A stretch of DNA of 64,000 nucleotides from a virus. Positions 12,485-34,365 of this stretch are shown here, piece after piece. How positions within the stretch are numbered: position 1 is the stretch's first letter; each line of letters opens with the position of its first letter. The notes below the pieces were generated by a model that was not told where the DNA came from, searched no databases, and saw only the letters and a list, made by a program, of their open reading frames with translations. A program made the position numbers and the translations under genes. The stretch is taken from the IMG/VR virus record IMGVR_UViG_3300031963_000013, one strand, 5' to 3'.

Positions 12485-12499
12485 CGTATATTTATTTAT

Positions 12500-14161
12500 A
12501 TGGTAAAAAAGGTAATAGCTGTGTATCCTGGACGTTTCCAACCGATGGGAAAGCACCATGCAGCTACTTTCAAGTGGCTTCAAGACAAATTTGGCAAGGA
12601 TAACACATACATAGTTACTTCCGATAAGGTAGAAATGCCTAAAAGCCCTTTAAATTTTCAAGAAAAAAAAGCTATCGCTGATAAGTACGGTTTTGGAGAC
12701 AACCTCGTAAAGGTAAAAAACCCCTACAAAGCAGAAGAGGTGACATCAAACTACGATCCAAACACCACCGCTATAGTATTTATGGTCGGTAAAAAAGACA
12801 TGGAAGAGGATCCGAGATTTAAAATAGGCCTAAAGAAAGACGGCACTCCTGGGTACTTTAAGAGGTACGAGCCGGGGAAACAGATGGAACCCTTTACAAA
12901 GCACGGTTATTTAATAGTTGCTCCTCATGTATCGCTAAAGACTCCAGACGGACAAGAGATGAGCGGCACAAGCATACGTTCTGTATTATCAAACCCAAAA
13001 TCAACAGCTGAAGACTTCAAACAGATCTTTGGTTGGTACGATCCCAAGATAGAGCGCATGATCAAATCCAAATTCGAAAAAAAAGATAACGCACCTATGA
13101 AAGAAAGCTCAATATCGCTCTTAAACCTGTTAACCGAAGGAGGCACCGGTGGACATATGGCTCACCCATTCGATCTACCAAGCGTAAACACAGGAAACGA
13201 CTTAATAAAAACTTTTATATTAGCTGTAAAGTCTTTACAAAAGAATCCTGGTTCGGTTAAAATAGACGGCGTTAACGCTTCTGTGAGACTTGTTGAACTT
13301 GACGGTAAGAAACAGTTCGTAATGGACCGTGGATCTAACAAACCGCTAGATGTAAAAGGCATAACTAAGGCGGATCTAGAAGATAGGTTCGCTCCCGGTC
13401 ACGGAATGGTTAAGATAGGAGGAGAGGTGTTAGACATATTCAACGAATCTTTACCAAGCATACAGCCGGAACTAGCCAAACTCGGACTCCTGGACAACCC
13501 AAACATACTACTAAACATAGAATACGTATCAGGCAAGACAAACGTTCAAGATTACGGTAAAAATTTTTTGGCCATACACGGTCTTCTGAAGATACAGCAA
13601 GTGACCGAAAAGAGAAGAGCCGCAAAAGAGATACCTTACGACAAAAAAGCGCTACAATCGATGATAAACAAAATGGCACCGATTGCAAAAGAGTACGATT
13701 TTGAAATATACGGATCAATACCAGCAAAGGTAGGAAAAGAACCAAACTTCTCTAGCGAACTGTCAAAATCTTACACTGTAAATTACTCAAAAGGCAAAAA
13801 AGAGACAAAGAGTCTAAAAGATTGGTTAAAAACTACAAAGATACCGAAAGGCGTGAAGGTCACTCTAGCAGACGGTAAAAAAATAGACGCGTTAAGTAAG
13901 CAAGTGTTTGTAGGAATAAAAAACGGAACACCGCTTGACAAACTTTTAGCTAACGAAGAAGACTACAAAGCGGCCATCGACGGATTCGTAACGTATTTGG
14001 CAACCATGCAGCTTGGAGACGCTGTTTTAAAATCTATGGATAGTCCTTTAGGCGCAGTAGAAGATCAAGAGGGAGTTGTAATACGTGACAAGAGCATATA
14101 CGATAAGCCTTTTAAACTAACAGGATCTTTCATACTCAGGGGTTTAGCAACATCATTCTAA
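12500..14161 (+). CDS. Two-domain protein: cytidylyltransferase-like nucleotidyltransferase plus a phage domain starting GGHMAHPFD
   Basis: YPGRFQP and MSGTSIR motifs; second domain has HMAHPFD..VKIDG..EGVV after the linker SLLNLLTE. Confidence 0.7.
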   Translation: MVKKVIAVYPGRFQPMGKHHAATFKWLQDKFGKDNTYIVTSDKVEMPKSPLNFQEKKAIADKYGFGDNLVKVKNPYKAEEVTSNYDPNTTAIVFMVGKKDMEEDPRFKIGLKKDGTPGYFKRYEPGKQMEPFTKHGYLIVAPHVSLKTPDGQEMSGTSIRSVLSNPKSTAEDFKQIFGWYDPKIERMIKSKFEKKDNAPMKESSISLLNLLTEGGTGGHMAHPFDLPSVNTGNDLIKTFILAVKSLQKNPGSVKIDGVNASVRLVELDGKKQFVMDRGSNKPLDVKGITKADLEDRFAPGHGMVKIGGEVLDIFNESLPSIQPELAKLGLLDNPNILLNIEYVSGKTNVQDYGKNFLAIHGLLKIQQVTEKRRAAKEIPYDKKALQSMINKMAPIAKEYDFEIYGSIPAKVGKEPNFSSELSKSYTVNYSKGKKETKSLKDWLKTTKIPKGVKVTLADGKKIDALSKQVFVGIKNGTPLDKLLANEEDYKAAIDGFVTYLATMQLGDAVLKSMDSPLGAVEDQEGVVIRDKSIYDKPFKLTGSFILRGLATSF

Positions 14162-14165
14162 ATAA

Positions 14166-15062
14166 ATGGAAGAACAACAAAGAATATCTATATACAAGGA
14201 CTTTCTCAAGTTCTGTTACGGAGAGTTGAACATAAAACACGCTCCCCGTATCAAGATAACTAGGGACAAGAACTTTGTAAAAATAAATTACAGTTTCGGA
14301 GGCTACTATCCGCAAGAGAAAGCAATAGTAGTGTACGACAACAACAGAAACTTAGCGGATTGTCTAAGAACGCTTGCTCACGAACTCGTGCACCACAGCC
14401 AAAACGAAAAAGGATCGCTAAAACCAGAATCAGGAAAAGACGGTAGCGAACACGAGAACGAAGCAAACTCAAAAGCTGGTATCATACTCAGATCTTACGG
14501 TAGACAGCACCCGATCATATACGAAAACAAAAGTTTGGGAATGCTTATGGAAGATCTTAAGAAGTACCAACTTTATTGCGATATGGACGGTGTCCTCTGC
14601 GATTTTGATGCGCAGTTCGATAAGTACTTTGGAATGGGACCCAAAGAGTACATAAAAGAAAGGGGTTTACCGTCTTTCGAATCAGCGATCGAAGACGCAG
14701 GCGTAGAGTTTTGGTCGACAATGTCATGGTTTCCCGGAAGTCAAGAGATTTGGAAAAAAATAGGAAAGCACGGTACGATAATACTTTCCAGCCCAAGTAA
14801 CTTTACAGACGCTAAAGAAGGCAAAAGACTGTGGATAGAAAAGAACTTGAATCCAAAACCAAAGGCGATAATATTCAAACAAACAGGGGACAAACACTCG
14901 ATATTGGCTAACAAAAGCGAAGAAGAGATAAAGACTTCTGTACTTATAGACGATTACGATGTAAACCTAAAACCGTGGAAAGCAGCTGGCGGTGTGGGAA
15001 TAAAGCACGAAAATCAAACAGACACATCTCACGCATTACAAACGCTAGACAAAAAGAAATAA
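14166..15062 (+). CDS. Two-domain protein: HExxH metallopeptidase-like domain plus HAD 5'(3')-deoxyribonucleotidase-like domain
   Basis: TLAHELVHH..ENEAN; then CDMDGVLCDF, LSSP, GKRLW and LIDD. Confidence 0.8.
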   Translation: MEEQQRISIYKDFLKFCYGELNIKHAPRIKITRDKNFVKINYSFGGYYPQEKAIVVYDNNRNLADCLRTLAHELVHHSQNEKGSLKPESGKDGSEHENEANSKAGIILRSYGRQHPIIYENKSLGMLMEDLKKYQLYCDMDGVLCDFDAQFDKYFGMGPKEYIKERGLPSFESAIEDAGVEFWSTMSWFPGSQEIWKKIGKHGTIILSSPSNFTDAKEGKRLWIEKNLNPKPKAIIFKQTGDKHSILANKSEEEIKTSVLIDDYDVNLKPWKAAGGVGIKHENQTDTSHALQTLDKKK

Positions 15063-15063
15063 A

Positions 15064-15174
15064 ATGGCAAGAGCAAAAGAAAGATTGAAACCCAAAAGGA
15101 GCAAAAAGTCTAGACTAAAAAATGCTGCAAGAATAAAAGCGAATAACGAAATATTAAAAAAATACGCATCATGA
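15064..15174 (+). CDS. Small basic protein (36 aa, not in the ORF track)
   Basis: MARAKERLKPKRSKKSRLKNAARIKANNEILKKYAS; fills the gap and overlaps the next start (ATGA). Confidence 0.6.
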   Translation: MARAKERLKPKRSKKSRLKNAARIKANNEILKKYAS

Positions 15175-15491
15175 TAAAAATAGAAAGTCTTTTGTTTGAG
15201 AATGCTTTCAAATTGATTTCCACAAAACCGCCGCAGGTTTTTGGCATGAGAAAAGCTGTGTATAAAAGCAAAGACGGTACCACAGTAAGCGTAGTGCATA
15301 GCGACTATTCTAGAAGCATGAGAACCGGTTCAGCACTAAACGGGTATTCTTCAGTGTGGGAAGGAAACAATTTTATAGACGACGTAGAATTCAAAGGAGA
15401 AAATCACGTTGAAAAGGCTACTAAATACCTTTTAAAAAAATACGGTATAACCCACGATGTTTCTAAACTAAAAAAATATCAAAGTAAATGA
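15171..15491 (+). CDS. Putative internal head protein
   Basis: N-terminal MIKIESLLFE leader. Confidence 0.55.
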   Translation: MIKIESLLFENAFKLISTKPPQVFGMRKAVYKSKDGTTVSVVHSDYSRSMRTGSALNGYSSVWEGNNFIDDVEFKGENHVEKATKYLLKKYGITHDVSKLKKYQSK

Positions 15492-15727
15492 TTAAATTAT
15501 TACCAATATTAAAAGAGCACGGAGACCAACCGCCTTACATGTATTCTAAGTACGGGTTTGGCTGCCACGTGTGTTCTTACTACGAGCTAAAAGAAGGCAA
15601 ACACTATTGCAACAGTACAGATTACAAGGAACACATGGGAACAGACGAGCTAATTAATCCAGAAACGGGAGAACAGATAGAAGATCCAACTAAGTGGTGT
15701 AGCAATTGGTTCGAACCACTAAAATAA
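15488..15727 (+). CDS. Putative internal head protein with a 4-Cys metal-binding domain
   Basis: MIKLLPILKE leader; CxxC-x11-C-x28-WC. Confidence 0.55.
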   Translation: MIKLLPILKEHGDQPPYMYSKYGFGCHVCSYYELKEGKHYCNSTDYKEHMGTDELINPETGEQIEDPTKWCSNWFEPLK

Positions 15728-15746
15728 TAAAAAATAAAATAATGTT

Positions 15747-16316
15747 ATGAGCGAAAACAACCTAAAGAAAGAGTTCTCAAAAAGAGAAGTGCAACGCATG
15801 CGCAACTTAATCACAGGTAAAACAGGTGATAGAACGCAAGTACAAGCTGGTTACGAAAAGAACAAGTACGATCACAAAGAGGGAGACGTTTGGGAAGAGA
15901 GCGGTAAACAATGGACAATAAAGAACGGCATAAAACAAACCATGACCAAATTGGATACGTTTAAAAAGCTGGTTGTACTACCTATATGTTGTCCAGAGTG
16001 CAACAAACACATGAAGTCTAACGATCTTAACAAAAAAATGTACTCAATTCATGGTAAGTGTTTAGATTGCGTTATAGATATGGAAAGCAAATTAAAGTTG
16101 GAGAACAGGTACGATGACTACGCTAAATCTATACTCAACAACAATCACAACACGTATTTGGAAGACGTAGAATCCGCTTTAGAAGCTTGGTACAACGAGA
16201 ACGAGTCGTACGTTACCGAAGCTGGAGAGATCGAAGCTTGGAAGGGTGGGAACAAAAAAGATATATACGATCAAGTAAAACGTCAATTAGACAAGATAAA
16301 GAGCGAGCAACGCTGA
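15747..16316 (+). CDS. Zinc-finger-containing hypothetical protein
   Basis: GDVWEESGKQWTIKNG motif; CPEC..CLDC. Confidence 0.65.
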   Translation: MSENNLKKEFSKREVQRMRNLITGKTGDRTQVQAGYEKNKYDHKEGDVWEESGKQWTIKNGIKQTMTKLDTFKKLVVLPICCPECNKHMKSNDLNKKMYSIHGKCLDCVIDMESKLKLENRYDDYAKSILNNNHNTYLEDVESALEAWYNENESYVTEAGEIEAWKGGNKKDIYDQVKRQLDKIKSEQR

Positions 16317-16344
16317 TATTTATAGATAAGCAAATAAAAAACAC

Positions 16345-17163
16345 ATGCCAGCAGCATCACAACAACAACAAAAGCTTATGGGAATAGTACGCGGTATCCA
16401 AAAGGGTACAGTAGATCCCAAAGACGTATCAGCAAAAGCCGGAGAAATGGCAAAATCCATGAAACCGGGAGAGGTTAAAAAATTCGCGTCCACAAAACAC
16501 AAAGGACTGCCAAAGAAAGTAAAGAAAGAAGCGTTAGAGGGCACCATAAGTGAACTTTACGTTGTAACGTCGCCTTATCCTGGATGCACACCAGACTCAC
16601 TGGTTAAGCCCATCGACCCGCTTAGTGGAATATCAGGAACCGAAATAAATCCTGACCAAGTGCAAGGGGTTTATCCCAATGCTGATCAAGCGATGGTGAT
16701 AGCAGAAAGAATGTGCGCTGAGTACGAAGAGGGGCAAAGAATGCTCGAAGAGAAGAAGGGAACGACTACAGAGAAGTTAAAGAAAGCGATAGACAAGCTT
16801 GAAAAGAAGCGTAAGGAACACATGGATGCAATGAAGGAAGATCCAAAGAAGGCAAGCGACCACAAAGAAGCAGTTGCGAACATAGCAAGCAAGATAGACG
16901 ACTATCTGACAAAGCTTGAAAAAATCGAGAAGAGCAAAAAGGCTGATGAAAAAGAAAAGATTAACGAAGCGCCAAGAGTCACTGTACAGCAACTTTTTAC
17001 ATCGTTGGATAGCAAAAATCTAAGCAACGACAAATTAGAGGATTTAGAATACGTAAAAAAATTGATAGATACAATACTAGATAAAGAGTACGATACTGTA
17101 GCCGACAACCCAGAAGAGCTAGCTAAAGATTACATCTCTAAACGTAAAAAAGATAAAAAATAA
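16345..17163 (+). CDS. Modular protein with a basic DUF3008-like N-terminus
   Basis: MPAASQQQQKLMG..KFASTKHKGLPKKV; internal LEE and INE sites. Confidence 0.55.
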   Translation: MPAASQQQQKLMGIVRGIQKGTVDPKDVSAKAGEMAKSMKPGEVKKFASTKHKGLPKKVKKEALEGTISELYVVTSPYPGCTPDSLVKPIDPLSGISGTEINPDQVQGVYPNADQAMVIAERMCAEYEEGQRMLEEKKGTTTEKLKKAIDKLEKKRKEHMDAMKEDPKKASDHKEAVANIASKIDDYLTKLEKIEKSKKADEKEKINEAPRVTVQQLFTSLDSKNLSNDKLEDLEYVKKLIDTILDKEYDTVADNPEELAKDYISKRKKDKK

Positions 17164-17168
17164 TTACA

Positions 17169-17540
17169 ATGGAAGCAGTAGGACTTTTCTTGGGTACATT
17201 GATGCAGAGCAGAAACCAAGCCCACGTGTATCACCTTCAAGTTACAGGACCCGGATCTCACGCAGCGCATCTAGCGTTACAAGCGTACTACGAAGGCATC
17301 GTTCCTTTGATAGACGCTTTAGCTGAAGGCATACAGGGACGCTACGGCATAATCAAAGGGTACCAAATGGCAGGAGCGATAAAGGAAGACAACAACTTCG
17401 TTTCTTACTTCGAAACTCTTTGTAAATTCGTTGAAGCGACAAGGAGACAGATACCCCAGGATTCTTACGTTCAGAACCAAGTTGATACAATAGTAGACCT
17501 TATAGAAAGCACAAAGTACAAACTAAGAAACCTTCAGTAA
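17169..17540 (+). CDS. Ferritin/Dps-like four-helix bundle protein
   Basis: HVYHLQ..HLALQAYYEGIVPLIDALAE Dps-like ligand pattern; C-terminal YKLRNL. Confidence 0.75.
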   Translation: MEAVGLFLGTLMQSRNQAHVYHLQVTGPGSHAAHLALQAYYEGIVPLIDALAEGIQGRYGIIKGYQMAGAIKEDNNFVSYFETLCKFVEATRRQIPQDSYVQNQVDTIVDLIESTKYKLRNLQ

Positions 17541-18130
17541 TGTGCAATTGCAATAGAATATCGTTACACGAATCTGTGAATAGGCTTCTGGTGTCAGAGG
17601 GCTTGAACTACCACCTTCAAAACAACGTTCCCATCAACGAGAACATATACAGACCTCAGTCTACATCGTTTATGGATCTCATAGTCGAAGTAAGAGGTCT
17701 TTACGATAGCGGTAAAATAAACTTATCTGAAGAAGATAGAGACTACTTCGAAGGCACAGACATAGGCAAATTTGGACTTTACGAAGGGATAAAAGTACCG
17801 TTAGACTTTCCAATGACGCTAGAGTTTTTGACGGAAGTAAAAAAGAAGTCAAAGAAAAAACAGCCCGAACTAAACAAACCAAAGCGTGGAGGACCCAAAA
17901 AGTTCTACGTTTACGTTAGGAAACCGGGTGGAGGAATAAAAAAGGTTACGTTCGGAGACACAACAGGTCTCAGCGCAAAGATCAACAACCCCGAAGCGAG
18001 GAAGTCCTTTGCAGCAAGACACAAATGCTCTCAGGCAAAAGATAAAACGACACCAAAGTATTGGAGCTGTAGACTACCGAGGTACGCAAGCCTATTGGGT
18101 CTAAAAAGCAACTTCACAGGATTCTGGTAG
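17540..18130 (+). CDS. Two-part phage protein with a basic C-terminal domain (DUF6321-like)
   Basis: KKFYVYVRKPGGGIKKVTFGD..RKSFAARHKC..YWSC after the FLTE site. Confidence 0.65.
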   Translation: MCNCNRISLHESVNRLLVSEGLNYHLQNNVPINENIYRPQSTSFMDLIVEVRGLYDSGKINLSEEDRDYFEGTDIGKFGLYEGIKVPLDFPMTLEFLTEVKKKSKKKQPELNKPKRGGPKKFYVYVRKPGGGIKKVTFGDTTGLSAKINNPEARKSFAARHKCSQAKDKTTPKYWSCRLPRYASLLGLKSNFTGFW

Positions 18131-18185
18131 TCGTTATTTTTAATTCAAATCGATAGTATGGACCCCGACGGGAAACAAACATTAC

Positions 18186-18398
18186 ATGACCTGGAGATCA
18201 AAATTCTTAAAAAACGTATCAACGACGTGTCTCATGCTGGCGATGTTTTTCAATCCGCTTGGCTTCGACGCACTATTCAAACTAGTGATGGATTGGACCG
18301 GTTCCTATTGGACTACGGATTTGATTTTCTATGGCGTTGCGCTTTCTTTTCTTGGGTTATATTTCTTCTTCAAAAAGCGTTCTGAAAAACATGTCTAG
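18186..18398 (+). CDS. Small membrane protein
   Basis: Two hydrophobic segments; FFNPLGFDALF. Confidence 0.6.
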   Translation: MTWRSKFLKNVSTTCLMLAMFFNPLGFDALFKLVMDWTGSYWTTDLIFYGVALSFLGLYFFFKKRSEKHV

Positions 18399-18663
18399 GC
18401 CTTACATCGATAATCTAGTAGGCAATACAATAACACGTACTTTCGATCAATCAATAGATCCAATAGAGCTGATGTGGCACAGGGACCTAAAAGATAGGAC
18501 TGTAACAGCTACGCACAACACAGACTGGAAGGTACAATTGGACAACGAACTGCCTACTGTAATAAAAGACAGCATATTTATACCTAAACTGGCGTGGCAC
18601 CGTGTCATAAAAGGCGCAGGAGCGCTGACAGTCAAAATAACCGAGCATGAAACAGCAAATTAA
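18391..18663 (+). CDS. Small cupin-like protein
   Basis: WHRD..IFIPKLAWHRVIKG cupin motifs; start at ATG 18391. Confidence 0.65.
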   Translation: MSRPYIDNLVGNTITRTFDQSIDPIELMWHRDLKDRTVTATHNTDWKVQLDNELPTVIKDSIFIPKLAWHRVIKGAGALTVKITEHETAN

Positions 18664-18931
18664 CGAAGTAAAAAGAATGCAAAAATTAGCTGGTATACTT
18701 AAAGAAAACAGCTACGCAGTCTATCAAGAATTGATTGATGATATAGTAGCCTTAGCGAGTAATAGCCCTTACAGTGAATACGAAGCAACGATAGATTTAT
18801 TGAAACAAGAAAAAATAGGAAGCGATGAATTTATAGAGGACCTAATGAAATATGCAAGAGGTGCTAACTATCATGATATAGCAGACGCATGTGAAGATTT
18901 GTTAAGAGGTATACATGCAGAACAAAGCTAA
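18647..18931 (+). CDS. Putative internal head protein with a scaffold-like motif
   Basis: MKQQINEVKRMQKLAGILKE matches the scaffold C-terminus RWQKIAGIK. Confidence 0.6.
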   Translation: MKQQINEVKRMQKLAGILKENSYAVYQELIDDIVALASNSPYSEYEATIDLLKQEKIGSDEFIEDLMKYARGANYHDIADACEDLLRGIHAEQS

Positions 18932-18944
18932 AAATTAAACGAAC

Positions 18945-19109
18945 ATGATTAGCTTACTCAGCATACTAAAAATGATAACTGAAGAAAAACCTGGACTTTG
19001 GGCAAACATACGAGCAAAAAGAGCTCGCGGTGAGAAGCCTGCTAAGAAAGGGTCAAAAGCGTACAAATCTGCTGTTAAAGCGGCTAAAGAGATAAACAAA
19101 AAGAACTAA
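18945..19109 (+). CDS. Small basic putative internal head protein (54 aa, not in the ORF track)
   Basis: MISLLSILKMITEE-KPGLWANIRAKRARGEKPAKKGSKAYKSAVKAAKEINKKN; stop overlaps the next ATG. Confidence 0.7.
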   Translation: MISLLSILKMITEEKPGLWANIRAKRARGEKPAKKGSKAYKSAVKAAKEINKKN

Positions 19110-19453
19110 TGAAAAACATATCCCTACAAGCGTTGGTAAGATCTTTAAGAGAAGAAGTAGATCTTCCAGGTGACCAAGAAAAGATAGACGTAGCAGAACC
19201 TAAAGGCAAGATAACTGCGGCTGACTTCAAGAAGCTTAGATCAATGAAGAAAAAGCATTCTGTAAAAGAAGGTGGAGACCACGAAGTAGCGATGGCTATG
19301 AGCAGCTTAAAAGAGATAGTAAGCAACGCAACACAACTCATGCAAAAGTTAGGCGGAGTAGAAAGAAACATTCCAGGTTGGATTCAAGATCACATAACAA
19401 ATTCGGAGAATTTTATCGAACAAGCAAATCAGGGTTTTCACGAAATTGAATAA
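19109..19453 (+). CDS. Putative internal head protein
   Basis: MKNISLQALVRSLREE leader; KITAADFKKLR and IPGWIQDHI modules separated by VKE. Confidence 0.6.
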   Translation: MKNISLQALVRSLREEVDLPGDQEKIDVAEPKGKITAADFKKLRSMKKKHSVKEGGDHEVAMAMSSLKEIVSNATQLMQKLGGVERNIPGWIQDHITNSENFIEQANQGFHEIE

Positions 19454-19469
19454 AACGTATTTATAAGAT

Positions 19470-21410
19470 ATGAATTTGGAAGCTTTAATACTCAAACAAA
19501 TGCTGTTAGAACAGGACGAAGAGACAGAAAAAAGGCCCGAAGAAAAAAAGGATTTAACACCTTTCGAAGAGGATCCCATGGGCTTTATACTCAAGAAGTA
19601 TAGCACGCTCAACGAGTTGCTTACAGAGCTGATGACAGGTTCTTTTAAAGAGTATTTAGATGCCATATTCATAGTTGCACCCAAACCAACCACCTTTAAA
19701 ATACTATTACACAACGGTCAATACTTTTTTTTAACGTATTTGGGTAAAGCTTACGAAGCGACAATATCTGGTAAGAAGTACTATTTGATGACAACCGGAG
19801 AAAAACAGTTGTGCATGCAAGCAATAGCAAGACTTCTTAGATTCGGTTCTCCGCTAAAAACAAAAGGACCCGAAGGCGCTGAAAAGGGTACAGAAGGAGT
19901 AGAAGACACAAGCGTAGAAGAACCAGAAACCGAAACACCTCCGGCAGAAGGAGGCGAGGAATTAAAAGAGAACAACATAGCCAAAAGAATAATAGAGAGC
20001 TACATACTGAAAGAAGAAAAAGCAGAAGAGGATATATTAGCGGCTTTGAAAAAGAACAAAAACGTAGCTTTAATGCAACCAGTAGCTGCAAAGCACCAGG
20101 GAGGTTCAAAATATAAAGTGTATTTAAAAGGAATAAACCCCACAGACAGAAAAGCAAGAGTTGATCTACTAGCTCAATTAACAGGACTTAGCAACGTAAA
20201 AGTTATAAAAAAAGGAGCTAAACTATCTCATGATGATTACGCAGAAGTAAGAGTACCATCTGGAACTTTTAAAGTTTATTTTAAGGGGTCCTCAGAGACA
20301 GCTACTTCTACAAACGTAAAAGAAGGTCTTGTGATGTCTTTTTATTACAGTAGCATAGAAGAACCTATAACATTAGAAAACTTTGACTCGTCTGTAAAAG
20401 CAGCTATATCAGCCACAAATAGAAATAAAGATATAGACGCTAATCTTAAAGAAGAACTTACAACCTATTTAAGAGGCATACAAAAAAATAAAGACAACGT
20501 TAAAACGCTTAATCAACCACTATCTCAAGCGCTAACGATAAAATCAGCTTATCCTGATGCAAGATTGGTAAGATCTGGCATATTTAACGCGTACAGATCA
20601 GAAGCGCAACAACAATTAAAAATGCCTGCAGATAAGTGGTGTCCTGGAGATGTGTATGTGTTATTAAATTCCGCAGAAGCAGAAACGATATTAGCATTAG
20701 CAAAGGAACAAGACAATCCAGCTTCATTCATAGAGATACTCAACGATGCATTTAACGAAAACTGGGGATCTAAAGAAGCACCTATGACAGCTGTTTCTCT
20801 AAAGTTCGAAAAAGCTCAAGGAGGTAAAGCAAAAGCTTACTTCGAAAAATTTAGAGCAATAAAAGACGACTATAACCTAACAAAGGACGAGATAAACTAC
20901 AAAGAAAAGAATTACATAGACGGTATACAGAGGCTAAGAAAAGTGATTCAAAGCAAAGTAAGAGGTGTAAAAGACATAAAATATATTCTACCCGCTGGAG
21001 ATAAACTTGAAAAAAACATAGATAAACTTAGAGGTAAATACGCCGCATTAAAAGCGCTTAATTTCTTCTTTGATCAACTTGATAAGTCAGAATACGACGA
21101 TGGCCTTGTGGCTCTAGTAGCTTTTGCAATGTCGCTTTCCGACACTTCTCCTGCGTTTTTCAAAGTAGTTGCAAGTTCATCCGGTCAACCAACAAAACCA
21201 GAAACATACCCTCGCGGTGGATCTTTAGCGCTGTTCATGGAAAACAACAAGATCATGCCTATAGAGATAGTAGACGAACCAAGTTTCGGTGGCCTTAAGA
21301 TAGACATGACAGTTAGTAAAGGCGGAGATCCCTACAGAATAAACCTTGTAGCAAGAAACAACGGTGGCGTACAAGGAACAATAGAAATAGCGAGTGTAAA
21401 ACCACAATAA
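19470..21410 (+). CDS. Modular protein with a C-terminal putative PD-(D/E)XK nuclease-like domain
   Basis: Leader MNLEALILKQMLLE; acidic linker with LKE/IIE/LKE; KEG..DKWCPGDVYV..VSLK motif. Confidence 0.5.
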   Translation: MNLEALILKQMLLEQDEETEKRPEEKKDLTPFEEDPMGFILKKYSTLNELLTELMTGSFKEYLDAIFIVAPKPTTFKILLHNGQYFFLTYLGKAYEATISGKKYYLMTTGEKQLCMQAIARLLRFGSPLKTKGPEGAEKGTEGVEDTSVEEPETETPPAEGGEELKENNIAKRIIESYILKEEKAEEDILAALKKNKNVALMQPVAAKHQGGSKYKVYLKGINPTDRKARVDLLAQLTGLSNVKVIKKGAKLSHDDYAEVRVPSGTFKVYFKGSSETATSTNVKEGLVMSFYYSSIEEPITLENFDSSVKAAISATNRNKDIDANLKEELTTYLRGIQKNKDNVKTLNQPLSQALTIKSAYPDARLVRSGIFNAYRSEAQQQLKMPADKWCPGDVYVLLNSAEAETILALAKEQDNPASFIEILNDAFNENWGSKEAPMTAVSLKFEKAQGGKAKAYFEKFRAIKDDYNLTKDEINYKEKNYIDGIQRLRKVIQSKVRGVKDIKYILPAGDKLEKNIDKLRGKYAALKALNFFFDQLDKSEYDDGLVALVAFAMSLSDTSPAFFKVVASSSGQPTKPETYPRGGSLALFMENNKIMPIEIVDEPSFGGLKIDMTVSKGGDPYRINLVARNNGGVQGTIEIASVKPQ

Positions 21411-21460: not shown

Positions 21461-21934
21461 ATGAACATATTCTATTTACACGAAGATCCAATCTTGGCAG
21501 CAAGAGATCTGTGCGATCAACACATTCTAAAAATGGGTATAGAATCTGCGCAAATGCTGTCAACTGCACACTGGGCCACAGGCGGCCAAGCTCCATACAA
21601 AAAAGCTCACCTAAATCACCCATCGACAAAGTGGGTTAGAGAATCAATACAACACTATAGGTGGTTGGTATACCACGCTGAAGAGATATTTAACATATAC
21701 ACAAAGCATTACGGAAGAGTACACAAAACCCAAGGAATATTAGAGTGGCTAAAACAAAACGAGCCAAAAATACCAGACAACGGTTTTTATGCACCGCCCC
21801 AATGTATGCCTGATGAATACAAGCAAGAGAACGCTGTAGACGCTTATAGAACGTTTTACGCCCTTGATAAAATAGTCGGTAAACAATTAACTTACAACAG
21901 GGTTAAAGCCAAACCAGAATGGCTATATAGCTAA
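21461..21934 (+). CDS. Pyrimidine-dimer DNA glycosylase (DenV-like family)
   Basis: MNIFYLHEDPILAARDLCDQHILKMGIESAQMLSTAH..HLNHPSTKW..PPQCMPDEYK. Confidence 0.75.
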   Translation: MNIFYLHEDPILAARDLCDQHILKMGIESAQMLSTAHWATGGQAPYKKAHLNHPSTKWVRESIQHYRWLVYHAEEIFNIYTKHYGRVHKTQGILEWLKQNEPKIPDNGFYAPPQCMPDEYKQENAVDAYRTFYALDKIVGKQLTYNRVKAKPEWLYS

Positions 21935-21965
21935 TACACATATTTATAGATAAAGTTTAAAACAA

Positions 21966-28348: not shown

Positions 28349-28477
28349 ATGGCAAAATCAAAATCATCAGGAGATAGCCGTAAAGTAACTTTCGGTAAAA
28401 GAAAAAAAGGAAGCTCACAAAAATCACACAACAAACACGATAGAAAAGAAAAAATGTATCGTGGACAAGGAAGATAA
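28349..28477 (+). CDS. Small basic protein ending YRGQGR (42 aa, not in the ORF track)
   Basis: MAKSKSSGDSRKVTFGKRKKGSSQKSHNKHDRKEKMYRGQGR; C-terminus typical of small T4-like head-module proteins. Confidence 0.7.
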   Translation: MAKSKSSGDSRKVTFGKRKKGSSQKSHNKHDRKEKMYRGQGR

Positions 28478-28488
28478 TATTTATTGAT

Positions 28489-30456
28489 ATGAACATAACC
28501 AAACTATACCAACAGCTACAAGAGGGTAAAACGTCCCGCGATTACTTCGTTAAAGAAGCACGCAGACAATTTCCACAGTTCATCAGTCCAGTGACTTCTT
28601 TTAAAGACGCTGTGAACATACTAAAAGGAAAAAGACTAGTATCAGAGAACGTAACCAAAGAGGTAAGCGGTGCATTCTTCGATGCTCCAACTTTTAAAAA
28701 CGAATTACAAACCACCGAAGAATCTTTACAGGAGATAAAGGGCGTAGACGAAGAACTTCTTGATATAGTGCTTAAGTACGTTAAAGATCCTGACGAAGCT
28801 ATACAGTATATAAAGAGGGGAATGCCGGATTGGTTAGAAGCTAATCTAGATAGAGACGAAGATTATAAGAATTATTTAAAAAGTACGAGAGGAGTAGATC
28901 TATACCCCGGAAACATGGGAGATGAGATGTCTGCTCCTAGAGAAGGAAAAATAAACGAAGCCCACAAACTTGACACAGAGCAGATATTGGATCGCATGTC
29001 TCCTTACGCTGTTAGAAAGGGCATAGAGTTAGAGTTGAAGAAAGAAAAGGTGATAGACAACACTACACTCAATAAAATCAAGACCCGTGTCGCTAAGAAG
29101 CTTCAAAAAAATAAAAACGCTTACGAAGACCAAGTTTTCTCAAACGTTAAAGAAATAGACAAAAAAGATAAGCAATTAGAAACAAAGGAAGTAACCCAAG
29201 AGTTGAACGATAAACACAACTCAATGAAAAAAATTAAGGGGTACAAAGAAGAGAAGGCAAACACAAAAGCTTCTAAGAAAGAAAACAGAAAGGGAAAACC
29301 TAAAGGCGTAAAAGTGATGCCTGACAAAGGCGTTACTGGATCTGAAAAGATATTAAAAGAAGACATTCAGGATAGAGCAGACGCTATTAATAGGTTCGCT
29401 AGACTAGTTAAATCTAAAAACATCGAAGATATAAAAAACGAATTAGAAGCGATAGTACAGTTTCCAGAACAGAGCAGTATTACGCCTAGTGAAGCAACAA
29501 AGATAATTAAAAAATATTGCACACCAGAAGAAGCTCAGCAGATATTAGACGACATAAATCAACCAATGACCGATCCAGCTGGTGGCAGCGGTTTATCTTC
29601 TCATCTTGAAGAGGATGAATTTAGAGCACCAACAAACAAACCGTTGGTTAACAAAGAAGAGGTGGACGACCAAGAATTGGAAGCATTAAAAATGAAAGTT
29701 ATAGGTTGGTATAAAAAAAATTATACTAATTCAAAATCACCGCTCGTTTCAAAATGGGCAACTGAATTTGAGGCAGACGTAAACAGAGCTACAAACAAAC
29801 AAGAAATCAAACAAGTCGTAGATAGCATATTGATGGGAGATACAACCACCGCTATGACTAACTTGGGTTTAAACGAAGACAAAGCGGAGGTGTTGAACAA
29901 TATAAAAGAGTTTTTACAAGAGTACAGCTACTTGGAATACCACCAAGGCATGGAAGTAAACACACCAGACGGTCCCGGAGTAGTTAAAGAAATAATGGGC
30001 GGTACGTTAACTATAGAGTTGGAAGACAGCGCTTTAAGAGACTATCAGATGAACGTGATAAACAAAGCAACAACAGATAGTAAAGAACAACCAAAACAAA
30101 CACCGCAAGCCGCAGCAGTCGACAAAGACAAAGAAGATAGGGACGCAGCATTCTCAAAGTTTCCTTTTGGCAACCTTGGCAGCGTAAAGGGCCCAGACAC
30201 TGGAATAAAGAAAGAGGCCTACAAGAACATGACACACGAAGAGAAACTTAAAGCGATAATGGAAAAAGTTCAAGCGATGGAAGAGGGCGAAAAGAAACAC
30301 AAGGCTTTGGACATTGTAAAGAAGAAGTTGAAAGAGGCTACAAAAATCCACGCAGGAGGAGAAGTTTTTTTTAAGAAAGATTCAGAAGTACCAGGATTTG
30401 AAGCTGATCTAAAATCAGCAGGAGTTAAATACACAAAAGAGAGAGTAGCATCATGA
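28489..30456 (+). CDS. Large modular prohead core or internal protein
   Basis: Charged 655-aa protein immediately before the protease; many LQE/INE/LKE/LEE/LNE sites. Confidence 0.55.
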   Translation: MNITKLYQQLQEGKTSRDYFVKEARRQFPQFISPVTSFKDAVNILKGKRLVSENVTKEVSGAFFDAPTFKNELQTTEESLQEIKGVDEELLDIVLKYVKDPDEAIQYIKRGMPDWLEANLDRDEDYKNYLKSTRGVDLYPGNMGDEMSAPREGKINEAHKLDTEQILDRMSPYAVRKGIELELKKEKVIDNTTLNKIKTRVAKKLQKNKNAYEDQVFSNVKEIDKKDKQLETKEVTQELNDKHNSMKKIKGYKEEKANTKASKKENRKGKPKGVKVMPDKGVTGSEKILKEDIQDRADAINRFARLVKSKNIEDIKNELEAIVQFPEQSSITPSEATKIIKKYCTPEEAQQILDDINQPMTDPAGGSGLSSHLEEDEFRAPTNKPLVNKEEVDDQELEALKMKVIGWYKKNYTNSKSPLVSKWATEFEADVNRATNKQEIKQVVDSILMGDTTTAMTNLGLNEDKAEVLNNIKEFLQEYSYLEYHQGMEVNTPDGPGVVKEIMGGTLTIELEDSALRDYQMNVINKATTDSKEQPKQTPQAAAVDKDKEDRDAAFSKFPFGNLGSVKGPDTGIKKEAYKNMTHEEKLKAIMEKVQAMEEGEKKHKALDIVKKKLKEATKIHAGGEVFFKKDSEVPGFEADLKSAGVKYTKERVAS

Positions 30457-31088
30457 GCAAACAACTTTTAATAGAGCATTCTTTTTTTACACCAACTATT
30501 AACTTACACGAGGGATTAAAAAACCAAAACGGTAACCTTATAGTTAGGGGTAAAGTGCAAGCTAGCGACAAACCAAACGCAAACCGCAGAGTGTATCCTT
30601 ACGAAACTCTGTTCGAACAGGTTAAAAAATACGTCGACGGTCCTATAAAAGAGAAGCGTGCGCTCGGAGAACTGGATCACCCAGAGAGCTCTATCATAAA
30701 TTTGAAAAACGTTTCTCACAACATACTGGATCTTTGGTGGGAAGGTAAAGACGTTTTCGGTACTATCGAAATACTGCCTACTCCCTCTGGTAACATACTC
30801 AAAGAGCTTTTTTTAAACAACATAACTGTAGGCATATCCTCAAGGGCTTTGGGTTCAACCACTCCCATGGCAGAAGGCTTAGTGAAAGTTGAAGAAGATT
30901 TGGAATTGATATGTTGGGACTTTGTTAGTCAACCCTCAACCTACGGTTCTTACATGAAACCTGTTAACGGTTTAAGAGAGTCTTACGACGCAACAATCAT
31001 AACTCAAACGCAAAACAAATACACAAACGTTAACAATTTGATGAGAGACATCATATGTGAAATGTCGGGTGTATGTTGCATAAACTAA
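30453..31088 (+). CDS. Prohead protease (T4 gp21-like)
   Basis: NANRRVYP, ALGELDHP, VSH, GISSRALGS, DFVSQPS. Confidence 0.93.
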   Translation: MSKQLLIEHSFFTPTINLHEGLKNQNGNLIVRGKVQASDKPNANRRVYPYETLFEQVKKYVDGPIKEKRALGELDHPESSIINLKNVSHNILDLWWEGKDVFGTIEILPTPSGNILKELFLNNITVGISSRALGSTTPMAEGLVKVEEDLELICWDFVSQPSTYGSYMKPVNGLRESYDATIITQTQNKYTNVNNLMRDIICEMSGVCCIN

Positions 31089-31093
31089 TAAAA

Positions 31094-31462
31094 ATGAAAC
31101 TATTTGAAATATTAAGCGAAGAGTTTTCAGCAAACGATCCGGTGTTAATGGCTCTTAGAGCTGCTAAAGATACTAGACAAAAAAACTTAAAAGCCTACGC
31201 CGCTAGTATGAAAAAAAGGGTGTATGGAAAGAAGAGAGAAGACCTCGTAGACAGATTAGAAACTCTTAACGATGATCTTTTGGATTTGTATAAACAAAAA
31301 AAGCAAGCGTTTATAGACATGGAATTAGACGCGGGTGAGAAAGGAAGTTCGTGGAGCGACCAAGATGCTAACGAATACGGTGATATGCTAAACAGCATTG
31401 ATGAAAAAATAGACTCTTTGATAAAAACTAGACAAAAGATTGAAATAGCTTTATCGTACTAA
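31094..31462 (+). CDS. Putative internal head protein
   Basis: MKLFEILSEE leader (ATG at 31094). Confidence 0.55.
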   Translation: MKLFEILSEEFSANDPVLMALRAAKDTRQKNLKAYAASMKKRVYGKKREDLVDRLETLNDDLLDLYKQKKQAFIDMELDAGEKGSSWSDQDANEYGDMLNSIDEKIDSLIKTRQKIEIALSY

Positions 31463-31647: not shown

Positions 31648-32670
31648 ATGGAAACAAACATTTACAAGCAATCACTTCTTGATGCTAAAGCGGTGCGTGC
31701 GAGCATTATCGCTAACGCAAAAGCTGAACTTCAAGAGGCAATTGAGCCAAAGATCCAAGACATGATACGCACTAAGCTATCAGAAGAATTGGAAGAAGAA
31801 CTCGAAGAGGAAGTAGAAGAAGGATACGACATGGAAGAAGGCGAAACTCACGAAGAAGGCTACTACGGCGAAAAAGAAGATCAAACAATGTCTGAAGACG
31901 ACGTTACAGACGCAACTTTGGAAGAAATTCTTGCCGAATTAGACGCTTTGGAAGAAGACCAGAACCTTAACGAAGTAGAAGAAAACGTTGAAGAAGAAGG
32001 CTACAACATGGAAGAAGGAGTTGAAGAGGCTGAAGAAGAAGCCGAAGACGACGAAACCGTTGATGCAGAAATCGAAGACGAAGAAGAAACTACTGACGAC
32101 GAAACCAAAGTTGTAGACATCACTCTTGGCGACCTCAAACAAGTTCTACAGTCTGTAATGGCACAAAAAGACACGACCGCCGACGAATTCGAAGCAAGCG
32201 AAGAAGAGTCAGAAGAAAGCTCAGAAGAGCCTTTATCTCTTGACGAAATCTTGGCAGAATTAGAAGAAGCCGAAGGTCACAAAGAAGAAAAGCACGAAGA
32301 AGGTAAAAAAGTTGAAGAGATGGAAAAAGAGCTAGAAGAAGCAAAAAACACTATAGCTGCTTTAAATGAAACTCTACAAGACATCAACCTATTGAATGCG
32401 AAGCTTCTTTACATGAACAAAATTTTCAAAGCAAAAACTTTGACAGAATCAGAAAAAGTAAAAGTAATTAAAGCTTTCGATAGATCTACTTCTGTTAAAG
32501 AGGTTAAAAACACTTTTGAAACATTAAAAGAATCTTTAAGCGTTAAAAAATCACAGCTAAAAGAATCTGTAGGTTTTGCATCGAAAGCCGCGGGCGTAGC
32601 ACCTAGCAAACCAATCATCGAATCAAACGATTTCGTTTCTAGATGGCAAAAAATCGCAGGCATTAAATAA
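31648..32670 (+). CDS. Prohead scaffold protein (gp22-like)
   Basis: Very acidic coiled coil just before the MCP; ends RWQKIAGIK. Confidence 0.85.
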   Translation: METNIYKQSLLDAKAVRASIIANAKAELQEAIEPKIQDMIRTKLSEELEEELEEEVEEGYDMEEGETHEEGYYGEKEDQTMSEDDVTDATLEEILAELDALEEDQNLNEVEENVEEEGYNMEEGVEEAEEEAEDDETVDAEIEDEEETTDDETKVVDITLGDLKQVLQSVMAQKDTTADEFEASEEESEESSEEPLSLDEILAELEEAEGHKEEKHEEGKKVEEMEKELEEAKNTIAALNETLQDINLLNAKLLYMNKIFKAKTLTESEKVKVIKAFDRSTSVKEVKNTFETLKESLSVKKSQLKESVGFASKAAGVAPSKPIIESNDFVSRWQKIAGIK

Positions 32671-32691: not shown

Positions 32692-34365
32692 ATGGCAAAT
32701 TTAGTACAATCTTTACTAAAAGAATCAGCCCAATCAACTTTCGAGAGCCAAACTAGCGTTGCTAGCAGACTCGCAAAGAAATGGGAAAAATCTGGACTCC
32801 TAGAGGGACTCCAAGATTACGAAAAGAATAACATGTCTGTTATTCTAGAAAACCAAGCTAAGCAGCTTGTAATCGAATCATCACAAACAAACGGTGGCTT
32901 AAACTCAGGCGGTGCTACTTTCACTCCTGGTACCGGCGAACAGTGGGCGGGCGTTGCTCTTCCTTTGGTTCGTAAAATCTTAGGCCAAATCGCATCTAAA
33001 GAGTTCGTTAGCGTACAGCCGATGAATCTTCCTGCTGGTCTAGTGTTCTATTTGGATTTCCAATACGGAGATTCTAAGAGACCATTCGCTTCAGGCGATT
33101 CTATCTACGGTACTCCGTCTAGCAACTTTGGTAACTTAGCAGCAGGTGCTCTTTACGGAGCTGGTAAATTCGGTTATTCTCTTAACCAATTCTCTGCTTC
33201 AATCTCATCATCAGCTGCAAATTTTGCTTCTGCTTCTGCTACTTGGGCTGAATTGGAATTCAACTCTGATTTCTCAGCTTCTGCAGCTGCAAGAACAATC
33301 ACAAAAGTAACAGTTCCTACATCTTCTATTGATGCTAACATCAACATTGATGGCGTAAGAGCTTTCATCATCACATCTGGTTCTACAGTTAACTCTGCTG
33401 ATAACTTACAGCAATTCACTGTTCTTTCTTCAAGTGCTGCTGGTGTGTTTGTTAACTTCTTCGTAAACAAGGCTTTGAGCACTTTTAGCGCTCCTCTTAC
33501 TTACGTTGTTAACTACAACAAGAAGACAGACTTCAACACTCGCGGTGATTTCGAAGACAGAACAGGTGCTCCTTCAGTTCCTAACGCTGCTAGCAACACA
33601 TCTATCGTTATCCCTGAGATCAACGTACAGATGAAGTCTCAGACAGTTTCTGCTAAGACTCGTAAGTTGAAAGCGCAGTGGACTCCTGAATTTGCGCAAG
33701 ACCTTAACGCTTACCACTCACTTGACGCTGAAGCTGAATTGACTGGTATCCTTTCTGAGCACATCTCTCTTGAGATCGACCTCGAAGTATTGGATATGTT
33801 AATTCAAAACGCTCCTACAGTTGAGTACTGGTCTGCTAAGGTTGGTAACCAAATCAACAACACCACAACTGGCTTTGATGTTAACACAGCGGGTGTTTAC
33901 TACACTCAAATGTCTTGGTTCCAAACTTTGGGCATCAAGATGCAAAAGGTTTCTAACATCATCCATCAGCGTACTTTACGCGGTGGCGCTAACTTCATCG
34001 TAGTATCTCCAACAATCGCTACAATCCTTGAGTCAATCCCTGGATTCGCTGCTGATACTGACGGAGCTGCTGACACAATGAAGTACGCTTTCGGTGTACA
34101 GAAGATCGGTGCGCTTAACAGCCGTTACAAAGTGTACAAGAACCCCTACATGACTGAGAACGTGATCCTTATGGGTCTTCGTGGAAATCAATTCCTTGAG
34201 TGCGGCGCGGTTTACTCTCCGTACGTTCCATTGATCATGACTCCTCTTGTGTACGATCCTAACACTTTTACTCCGCGTAAAGGTATCATGACTCGTTACG
34301 CTATGACTATGGTGAGACCAGAATTTTACGGATTGGTTGTTGTGGCTGACACAAACGTGATCTAA
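32692..34365 (+). CDS. Major capsid protein (T4 gp23-like)
   Basis: VSVQPMNLPAGLVF, AKTRKLKAQWTPEFAQDLNAYH, YSPYVPL, PRKGIMTRY. Confidence 0.97.
   Translation: MANLVQSLLKESAQSTFESQTSVASRLAKKWEKSGLLEGLQDYEKNNMSVILENQAKQLVIESSQTNGGLNSGGATFTPGTGEQWAGVALPLVRKILGQIASKEFVSVQPMNLPAGLVFYLDFQYGDSKRPFASGDSIYGTPSSNFGNLAAGALYGAGKFGYSLNQFSASISSSAANFASASATWAELEFNSDFSASAAARTITKVTVPTSSIDANINIDGVRAFIITSGSTVNSADNLQQFTVLSSSAAGVFVNFFVNKALSTFSAPLTYVVNYNKKTDFNTRGDFEDRTGAPSVPNAASNTSIVIPEINVQMKSQTVSAKTRKLKAQWTPEFAQDLNAYHSLDAEAELTGILSEHISLEIDLEVLDMLIQNAPTVEYWSAKVGNQINNTTTGFDVNTAGVYYTQMSWFQTLGIKMQKVSNIIHQRTLRGGANFIVVSPTIATILESIPGFAADTDGAADTMKYAFGVQKIGALNSRYKVYKNPYMTENVILMGLRGNQFLECGAVYSPYVPLIMTPLVYDPNTFTPRKGIMTRYAMTMVRPEFYGLVVVADTNVI

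Follow-up and report, generated by a model that had tools for sequence, protein, structure and literature searches.

The 64,000-nucleotide stretch of DNA analysed here (IMG/VR virus record IMGVR_UViG_3300031963_000013; hereafter the window) comes from a large uncultured freshwater phage of the T4 superfamily. Positions 12500-21410 of the window hold a block of genes, several of which encode otherwise unrelated proteins that begin with a similar short leader, or tag, ending in an aliphatic residue, any residue and glutamate (aliphatic-x-Glu). In T4, the prohead protease gp21 cuts after L/I-x-E (PMC9026906). The block is flanked by gp47/gp46-like nuclease genes and by a DenV-like gene followed by the terminase gene. 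Among cultured phages, Flavobacterium phage vB_FspM_immuto (immuto) is closest: its capsid protein is 54% identical to that of the window, and the two share the gene order nucleotidyltransferase gene, block, head genes; a DNA search with the block against cultured phages gave no match.

A preliminary description of this DNA listed six such leaders, at 15171, 15488, 18945, 19109, 19470 and 31094 (genes are named here by their start coordinate), together with a similar beginning for the major capsid protein (32692), and the translations at all seven positions agree with it (Table 1). The leaders that it placed on a block of accessory proteins are real, although only five to seven of the approximately 16 genes in 12500-21410 carry one. 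The predicted tagged set of the window comprises 15171, 15488, 18945, 19470 and 31094, with 19109 less clear and 18647 bearing an extended form of the tag. The predicted mature products of these genes measure 4.5-13 kDa, plus one of 70 kDa, and two are basic (pI 9.7 and 10.7). None of the products belongs to a known family: no assignment was obtained for 15171, 15488, 19109, 19470 or 31094 using Pfam, PHROGs and NCBIfam. The predicted mature part of 18945, a very basic stretch of 41 residues, includes a motif shared by many phage proteins (PHROG 11180 and others). Four orthologues of 15488 in related phages retain the leader, members of the 19109 family in relatives have clear leaders, and the homologue of 31094 in relative G001 is located in the upstream block with a leader of 10 residues.

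The largest of these proteins, 19470, was modelled with AlphaFold, which revealed a helix spanning residues 2-20 followed by a low-confidence linker. Weak fold hints were obtained for a frataxin/CyaY-like region at residues 42-125 (Z 7.0) and a Pol-beta nucleotidyltransferase-like core at residues 170-277 (Z 7.6), which serve as leads only; the catalytic motifs typical of these folds were not conserved in an eight-sequence alignment. Foldseek with this model returned nothing at E 0.001 or better, a profile of the protein had no match among PDB sequences, the Atlas yielded only unnamed viral clusters, and a protein search gave only a partial match, in immuto phages. A direct comparison of 19470 with T4 Alt found no similarity.

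Table 1. Coordinates of the leader-bearing genes, head genes and other features of the window
Feature	Coordinates	Strand	Description
TATTTAT box	12489..12499	+	directly upstream of 12500
Leader-like 10-mer	13109..13138	+	residues 204-213 of the 553-aa protein 12500-14161
Leader-like junction	14532..14552	+	ends M-L-M-E; between the HExxH peptidase-like and 5'-nucleotidase halves of 14166-15062
Leader-bearing gene 15171	15171..15491	+	106 aa, family unknown; leader residues 1-10 (15171-15200), ends L-F-E; predicted mature 96 aa, pI 9.7
Leader-bearing gene 15488	15488..15727	+	79-aa Cys-rich protein; leader residues 1-10 (15488-15517), ends L-K-E
Leader-bearing gene 18647	18647..18931	+	94 aa; 20-residue leader (18647-18706), R-M-Q-K-L-A-G-I then L-K-E
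Leader-bearing gene 18945	18945..19109	+	54 aa; leader residues 1-13 (18945-18983), ends I-T-E; predicted mature pI 10.7
Leader-bearing gene 19109	19109..19453	+	114 aa; weaker 15-residue leader (19109-19153), ends L-R-E
Leader-bearing gene 19470	19470..21410	+	646 aa; leader residues 1-14 (19470-19511), ends L-L-E; acidic disordered linker next
DenV-like pyrimidine-dimer glycosylase	21461..21934	+	directly 3' of leader genes
Terminase	22762		head module
gp20-type portal	24359		head module
Head-module protein	28489..30456	+	655 aa; directly upstream of protease; L-x-E then G-K at residues 10-14 conserved in relatives
Prohead protease, T4 gp21 family	30453..31088	+	Pfam Peptidase_S77 PF03420 4.3e-24; PHROG 207 3.8e-46
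Leader-bearing gene 31094	31094..31462	+	122 aa, between protease and scaffold; 9-residue leader (31094-31120), ends L-S-E
Scaffold-like protein	31648..32670	+	eight conserved aliphatic-x-Glu sites
gp23-type major capsid protein	32692..34365	+	Pfam 4e-78; propeptide ~residues 1-62 (32692-32877)

The window was compared with 80 related phage contigs, collected via the terminase, and with two complete relatives of 180 and 183 kb, from which all genome-wide leader counts are taken. Proteins of the window and the 80 contigs were clustered by their bodies only, giving 296 families, and their N-termini were matched to a strict leader pattern (Met, up to six residues, then hydrophobic-x-x-hydrophobic-hydrophobic-x-Glu, inside the first 20 residues). 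This revealed that 37 of the 296 families match, versus a mean of 3.8 (maximum 10) in 200 shuffles of the N-termini, while the pattern occurs at 0.23% of internal Met positions; the leader is thus enriched approximately 10-fold over chance at N-termini. The pattern fits no tail or fibre gene between 35 and 64 kb. Depending on the criterion, the tag is carried by 36-43 otherwise unrelated families, its consensus is M-I-K-L-x-x-I-L-x-E with conserved columns L4, I7, L8 and E10, and its length is exactly 10 residues in 17 of 36 families.

As the genome has a G+C content of approximately 39% and is rich in K, I, L, E and N, this resemblance might be considered a by-product of AT-rich composition, of a translation-start preference, or of a conserved DNA joint used in gene shuffling. 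The 10-fold excess over both shuffled N-termini and internal Met positions speaks against this explanation, as does the way in which the leaders vary: their codons differ between paralogues, the window's own leaders included, while the hydrophobic positions are kept and the Glu stands at a set distance, and no shared or conserved DNA was found upstream of them. Because the codons vary and there is no common upstream DNA, it is the peptide itself that is under selection, and a recombination joint or translation signal as the source of the leader could be ruled out. The enrichment and codon comparisons largely refute an origin as a by-product, which we now regard as very improbable; the tag is a genuine feature, kept by selection on the protein and borne by unrelated bodies with fast turnover.

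A scoring matrix trained solely on families missing from the window was then applied to 19,696 window positions. Nine of the twelve top scores fall within the first 20 residues of a protein, belonging to 31094, 1675-2130 on the minus strand, 18647, 19470, 18945 (in two overlapping registers), 15488, the capsid protein and the terminase. The leader of 15171 ranks 19th in the window and that of 19109 is a weak match with a score of 2.9; T4 gp24 scores 11.6 with the same matrix.

The protease to which the preliminary description assigned cleavage of the leaders was confirmed as a gp21/S77 homologue, with 30% identity to T4 gp21 (E 1e-22) in an alignment that pairs the His of the conserved H-P motif and the Ser of the conserved S-S-R motif in the two proteins. 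It bears L-I-E at residues 6-8 of its own chain, as do the proteases of nearly all relatives, and T4 gp21 has the same feature at residues 7-9. The capsid propeptide aligns with that of T4 gp23 and contains four conserved aliphatic-x-Glu sites (E11, E38, E53 and E62) in 62 residues, versus four in the other 495; the maturation cut likely follows E62, its T4 counterpart following E65. Given this alignment and these four sites, the leader-like first 11 residues of the capsid protein, although present as described, constitute the first of several sites in a propeptide of approximately 62 residues. The N-terminus of the head-module protein 28489 is also a possible propeptide, since its L-x-E and G-K at residues 10-14 are kept in relatives; an F-V-K-E site at residue 23 of the same protein was rejected, as its Glu is not conserved in relatives. 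The tag agrees with the cutting motif, which is also found in the capsid propeptide, the scaffold and the protease.

These matches bear on the suggestion that the leader is an N-terminal helix with a role outside the capsid, such as a tag for some other partner (the HExxH protein 14166, for example), oligomerisation or membrane binding. While an HExxH peptidase-like domain is kept in the block of most relatives and some leader genes lie far from the head genes, the length of the tag, its conserved positions and its terminal aliphatic-x-Glu fit the T4 tag and the gp21 site, the motif is also conserved in the capsid propeptide, scaffold and protease N-terminus, and the extended tag copies the tail of the scaffold, as detailed below. 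A non-capsid role for the leader is, in our assessment, unlikely.

The tail in question comprises the C-terminal 15 residues of the scaffold (32623-32667), which carry R-W-Q-K-I-A-G-I-K and are preceded by a site of the I-I-E type. This tail is near-invariant in the window and in all 16 related scaffolds, that of immuto included, and its motif recurs near the N-terminus of 18647 and of at least seven other unrelated bodies, with I/L-x-E directly after it in all but one. The copy in 18647 is the same as the scaffold tail at 6 of 8 positions, the two differences being conservative (M/W and L/I), and the last ten residues of its extended tag, M-Q-K-L-A-G-I-L-K-E, fit the consensus of the short leader in the form M-x-K-L-x-x-I-L-x-E. 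This suggests that the tag imitates a docking tail of the scaffold.

The preliminary description counted enzymes among the packaged proteins, a proposal that the window does not bear out as stated: both of its enzyme genes, 12500 and 14166, lack an N-terminal leader. Each instead has a leader-like segment inside the chain. That of the 12500 protein is the top matrix score of the whole window and falls where a nucleotidyltransferase-like half meets one containing a K-I-D-G motif; relative G001 encodes the latter half as a gene of its own, which starts with the aligned 10-residue leader. The AlphaFold model of the 12500 fusion is poor, with a low-confidence junction, and among PDB sequences the first half has only a weak phosphopantetheine adenylyltransferase match and the second half has none. 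In 14166, an HExxH metallopeptidase-like domain, whose gene is present in the block of most relatives, is fused to a 5'-nucleotidase (NT5C/HAD) domain. L006, L018 and immuto encode the nucleotidase as a gene in its own right, and in some relatives that gene starts near the leader-like junction of the window protein. Cleavage of the fused enzymes of the window is possible, while their entry into the prohead is doubtful, as they have no N-terminal leader.

Among the relatives, N-terminal leaders do occur on enzyme-like bodies, namely a nucleotidyltransferase-like protein and a Zeta-toxin-like kinase, and enzymes are probably tagged cargo in these phages. The kinase, a Zeta-toxin/AAA_33-like P-loop protein encoded at L049:600-1400, has a perfect 10-residue leader and is a candidate injected enzyme. 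Seven of eight large family-unknown leader proteins of relatives obtained no assignment from Pfam, PHROGs or NCBIfam.

A broader reading would join the scaffold tail and the enzyme junctions. The tag would mimic the C-terminal docking tail of the scaffold through a K-(L/I)-x-x-I core, forming one detachable docking code that the protease could release from either end, and the protease would also cut both enzyme fusions (nucleotidyltransferase-like/K-I-D-G and peptidase-like/nucleotidase) inside the head, so that active enzymes would be injected. We hold this joint reading tentatively and judge it rather doubtful.

To describe how leader genes are distributed, we surveyed the 22 genomes with a full 10-kb block, in which one to six genes among 10-19 carry a leader. 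The preliminary description had spoken of a large, variable set; the variable part of the block does consist of leader-bearing genes, but the set is not large: each complete relative has approximately 10 such genes (11 of 277 and 9 of 234). In these two genomes the head-plus-block region shows a 6-8 fold enrichment of tagged genes, with the others dispersed. A second cluster was seen in relative G002 (L095) at approximately 86-93.5 kb, where four to five genes with perfect 10-residue leaders lie far from the head module amid glycosyltransferase-like genes and genes without known function.

The survey also bears on whether the tagged proteins are accessories of the prohead core or scaffold, akin to T4 gp67 and gp68, that would be cut by the protease and then degraded or expelled rather than delivered as cargo. 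The position of 31094 between protease and scaffold, the similar starts of the head-module proteins 28489 and 27187, and the small size and acidity of several tagged proteins would all suit such a role, and the core proteins of T4 are cut at the same motif as the tag (PMC9026906). Parts of an assembly machine should, however, be conserved, whereas none of the 32 leader-bearing families in the block of the 22 genomes occurs in more than 10 of them and 19 occur in one genome only. The tag is moreover found on the enzyme-like bodies described above, and most tagged proteins have one site, at the end of the leader, rather than many along the chain. That the tagged proteins are core accessories is accordingly an improbable account of them.

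We consider it probable that the leaders are propeptides acting as capsid targeting sequences of the T4 type. A short amphipathic N-terminal helix would dock each protein into the core of the assembling prohead, the gp21-type serine protease at 30453-31088 would then cut after the Glu of the leader, and the mature protein would stay inside the head beside the DNA. Docking, cleavage and presence in the virion are what we infer from the sequences for the tagged proteins, and their delivery into the host with the DNA is inferred with less certainty.

Several observations weigh against this interpretation. K, I, L and E are abundant in the genome, and the leader motif is a short one; the strict pattern, applied to 83 T4 open reading frames (ORFs), recovers gp24, Alt, IPII and IPIII but also two to three others, a false-positive rate of 2-3%, so that single leader calls can be false. 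The start of the terminase gives a good leader score, and a good match also lies among baseplate genes, at 1675-2130 on the minus strand, reflecting either use of the motif outside the head or a false positive. About half of the leader genes in the complete relatives fall outside the head region. A literature search found no virion proteome or N-terminal data for this phage or its cultured relatives. The 1675-2130 gene itself encodes a 151-aa protein and adjoins a gp25-like baseplate wedge gene; both complete relatives keep it, and a TATTTATA box is found 12 nt upstream of it.

If T4-type targeting is correct, a simple sequence rule would predict which proteins are carried in the head, and probably injected, by uncultured T4-like phages of freshwater Bacteroidota. 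The tagged proteins, which lack a known family and turn over quickly between relatives, have the profile that counter-defence or takeover factors would be expected to show. In the cultured phage immuto the rule is open to test, and the leader could be used to load foreign proteins into such phages, like the T4 tag.

The block was also described as driven by a late TATTTAT motif. Besides the copy upstream of 12500, the motif is found within or beside the block at 16317-16324, 19458-19465 and 21941-21948, and it is enriched in the window, with 33 occurrences of the 7-mer versus 20.5 expected and 17 of the 8-mer TATTTAT(A) versus 5.8. A box lies 7-50 nt before 14 plus-strand genes and one minus-strand gene, mostly structural; it precedes 12500, 16345, 19470, 21966 and ten structural operons, and the two complete relatives retain it ahead of the orthologues. 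Read along the coding strand it is TATTTATA, which is the T4 late box TATAAATA in reverse complement; the T4 arrangement, with TATAAATA on the coding strand before late genes, was not found here. The motif is therefore present and enriched as described, but the element differs from that of T4, and late timing is deduced from its position before structural operons. The box may work like a late promoter.

The block also has a conserved backbone without leaders, made up of the HExxH peptidase-nucleotidase, DUF3008, a Dps-like DUF5856 protein and a small membrane protein; the peptidase-nucleotidase, a 189-aa Cys-rich protein, DUF3008 and the Dps-like protein are present in 17-20 of the 22 genomes. 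A 70-aa two-helix membrane protein, kept in relatives, is encoded at 18186-18398. The 110-aa ORF at 18331-18663 that overlaps it probably starts at an internal Met, at about 18391, as relatives begin there. Three short motifs that are widespread in phage proteins of unknown function, DUF3008, the PHROG 7595 basic domain and a G-L-W-A-N-I basic motif, are grouped in the block, in genes spanning 16345-17163, 17540-18130 and 18945-19109; in relative L007, a leader-bearing protein of 835 aa begins with the G-L-W-A-N-I motif. The window encodes at 28349-28477 a highly basic protein of 42 aa that ends in Y-R-G-Q-G and has no leader; it is conserved in the head module of every relative examined, and a similar gene of immuto sits in the upstream block; this protein may be a DNA-binding internal peptide.

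The closest parallel to the leaders is found in T4, where the tag occurs on the internal proteins IPI-III, on Alt and as the 10-residue propeptide of gp24, and is in every case removed by gp21 (Mullaney & Black 1996, reviewed in PMC9026906 and PMC3012670). In IPIII, residues 1-10 serve as a capsid targeting sequence in which mutagenesis assigned positions 4 and 7 to targeting and positions 8 and 10 to processing (PMC9026906), and it is these functional positions that L4, I7, L8 and E10 of the consensus described here match in sequence. Leaders with this form and a length of 10 residues can be read in the T4 record at the start of IPII, IPIII, Alt and gp24. Both systems thus pair a protease of the S77 family with an N-terminal leader of approximately 10 residues that is hydrophobic at positions 4, 7 and 8, has Glu at position 10 and ends in aliphatic-x-Glu, and both place a single tag on unrelated, fast-changing bodies. 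T4 has the gene order ipIII, ipII, denV, and in the window the leader genes 18945, 19109 and 19470 precede the DenV-like gene; part of the tagged genes of the relatives are scattered, like the ip and alt genes of T4. Unlike T4, this lineage has its own consensus and, in each genome, approximately 10 tagged genes that cluster upstream of the terminase, with enzyme-like tagged bodies in relatives, some leaders of 13-20 residues with two sites, and leader-like segments inside fused proteins. As the T4 literature already expects T4-like phages to package varied proteins by means of the tag (PMC9026906), our findings would extend a known mechanism to a new lineage and do not describe a new one.

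In the giant phages phiKZ, 201phi2-1 and SPN3US, head and ejection proteins have N-terminal propeptides that are cut after Glu by gp21-related proteases and are thought to target the prohead (PMC5694885, PMC10052503). The phage described here resembles them in combining many putative head-internal proteins that have an N-terminal propeptide with a gp21-type protease, but the propeptides of giant phages mostly exceed 100 residues, are cut at S/A-x-E and share no common short leader. Among the papers searched, none describes leaders of this kind in phages other than T-even and giant phages.

The scaffold tail has parallels further afield. The M-site of the herpesvirus scaffold and the C-terminal helices of the P22 scaffold are coat-binding scaffold tails released by a maturation protease. 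The scaffold of the window resembles these in its near-invariant tail, in the cleavage-type site before it and in the reuse of the motif at the head of other proteins, while binding of its tail to the capsid protein is putative. The cargo-loading peptides of encapsulins are mostly C-terminal and uncleaved, whereas the tag of this phage is N-terminal on its putative cargo and ends in a predicted cleavage site.

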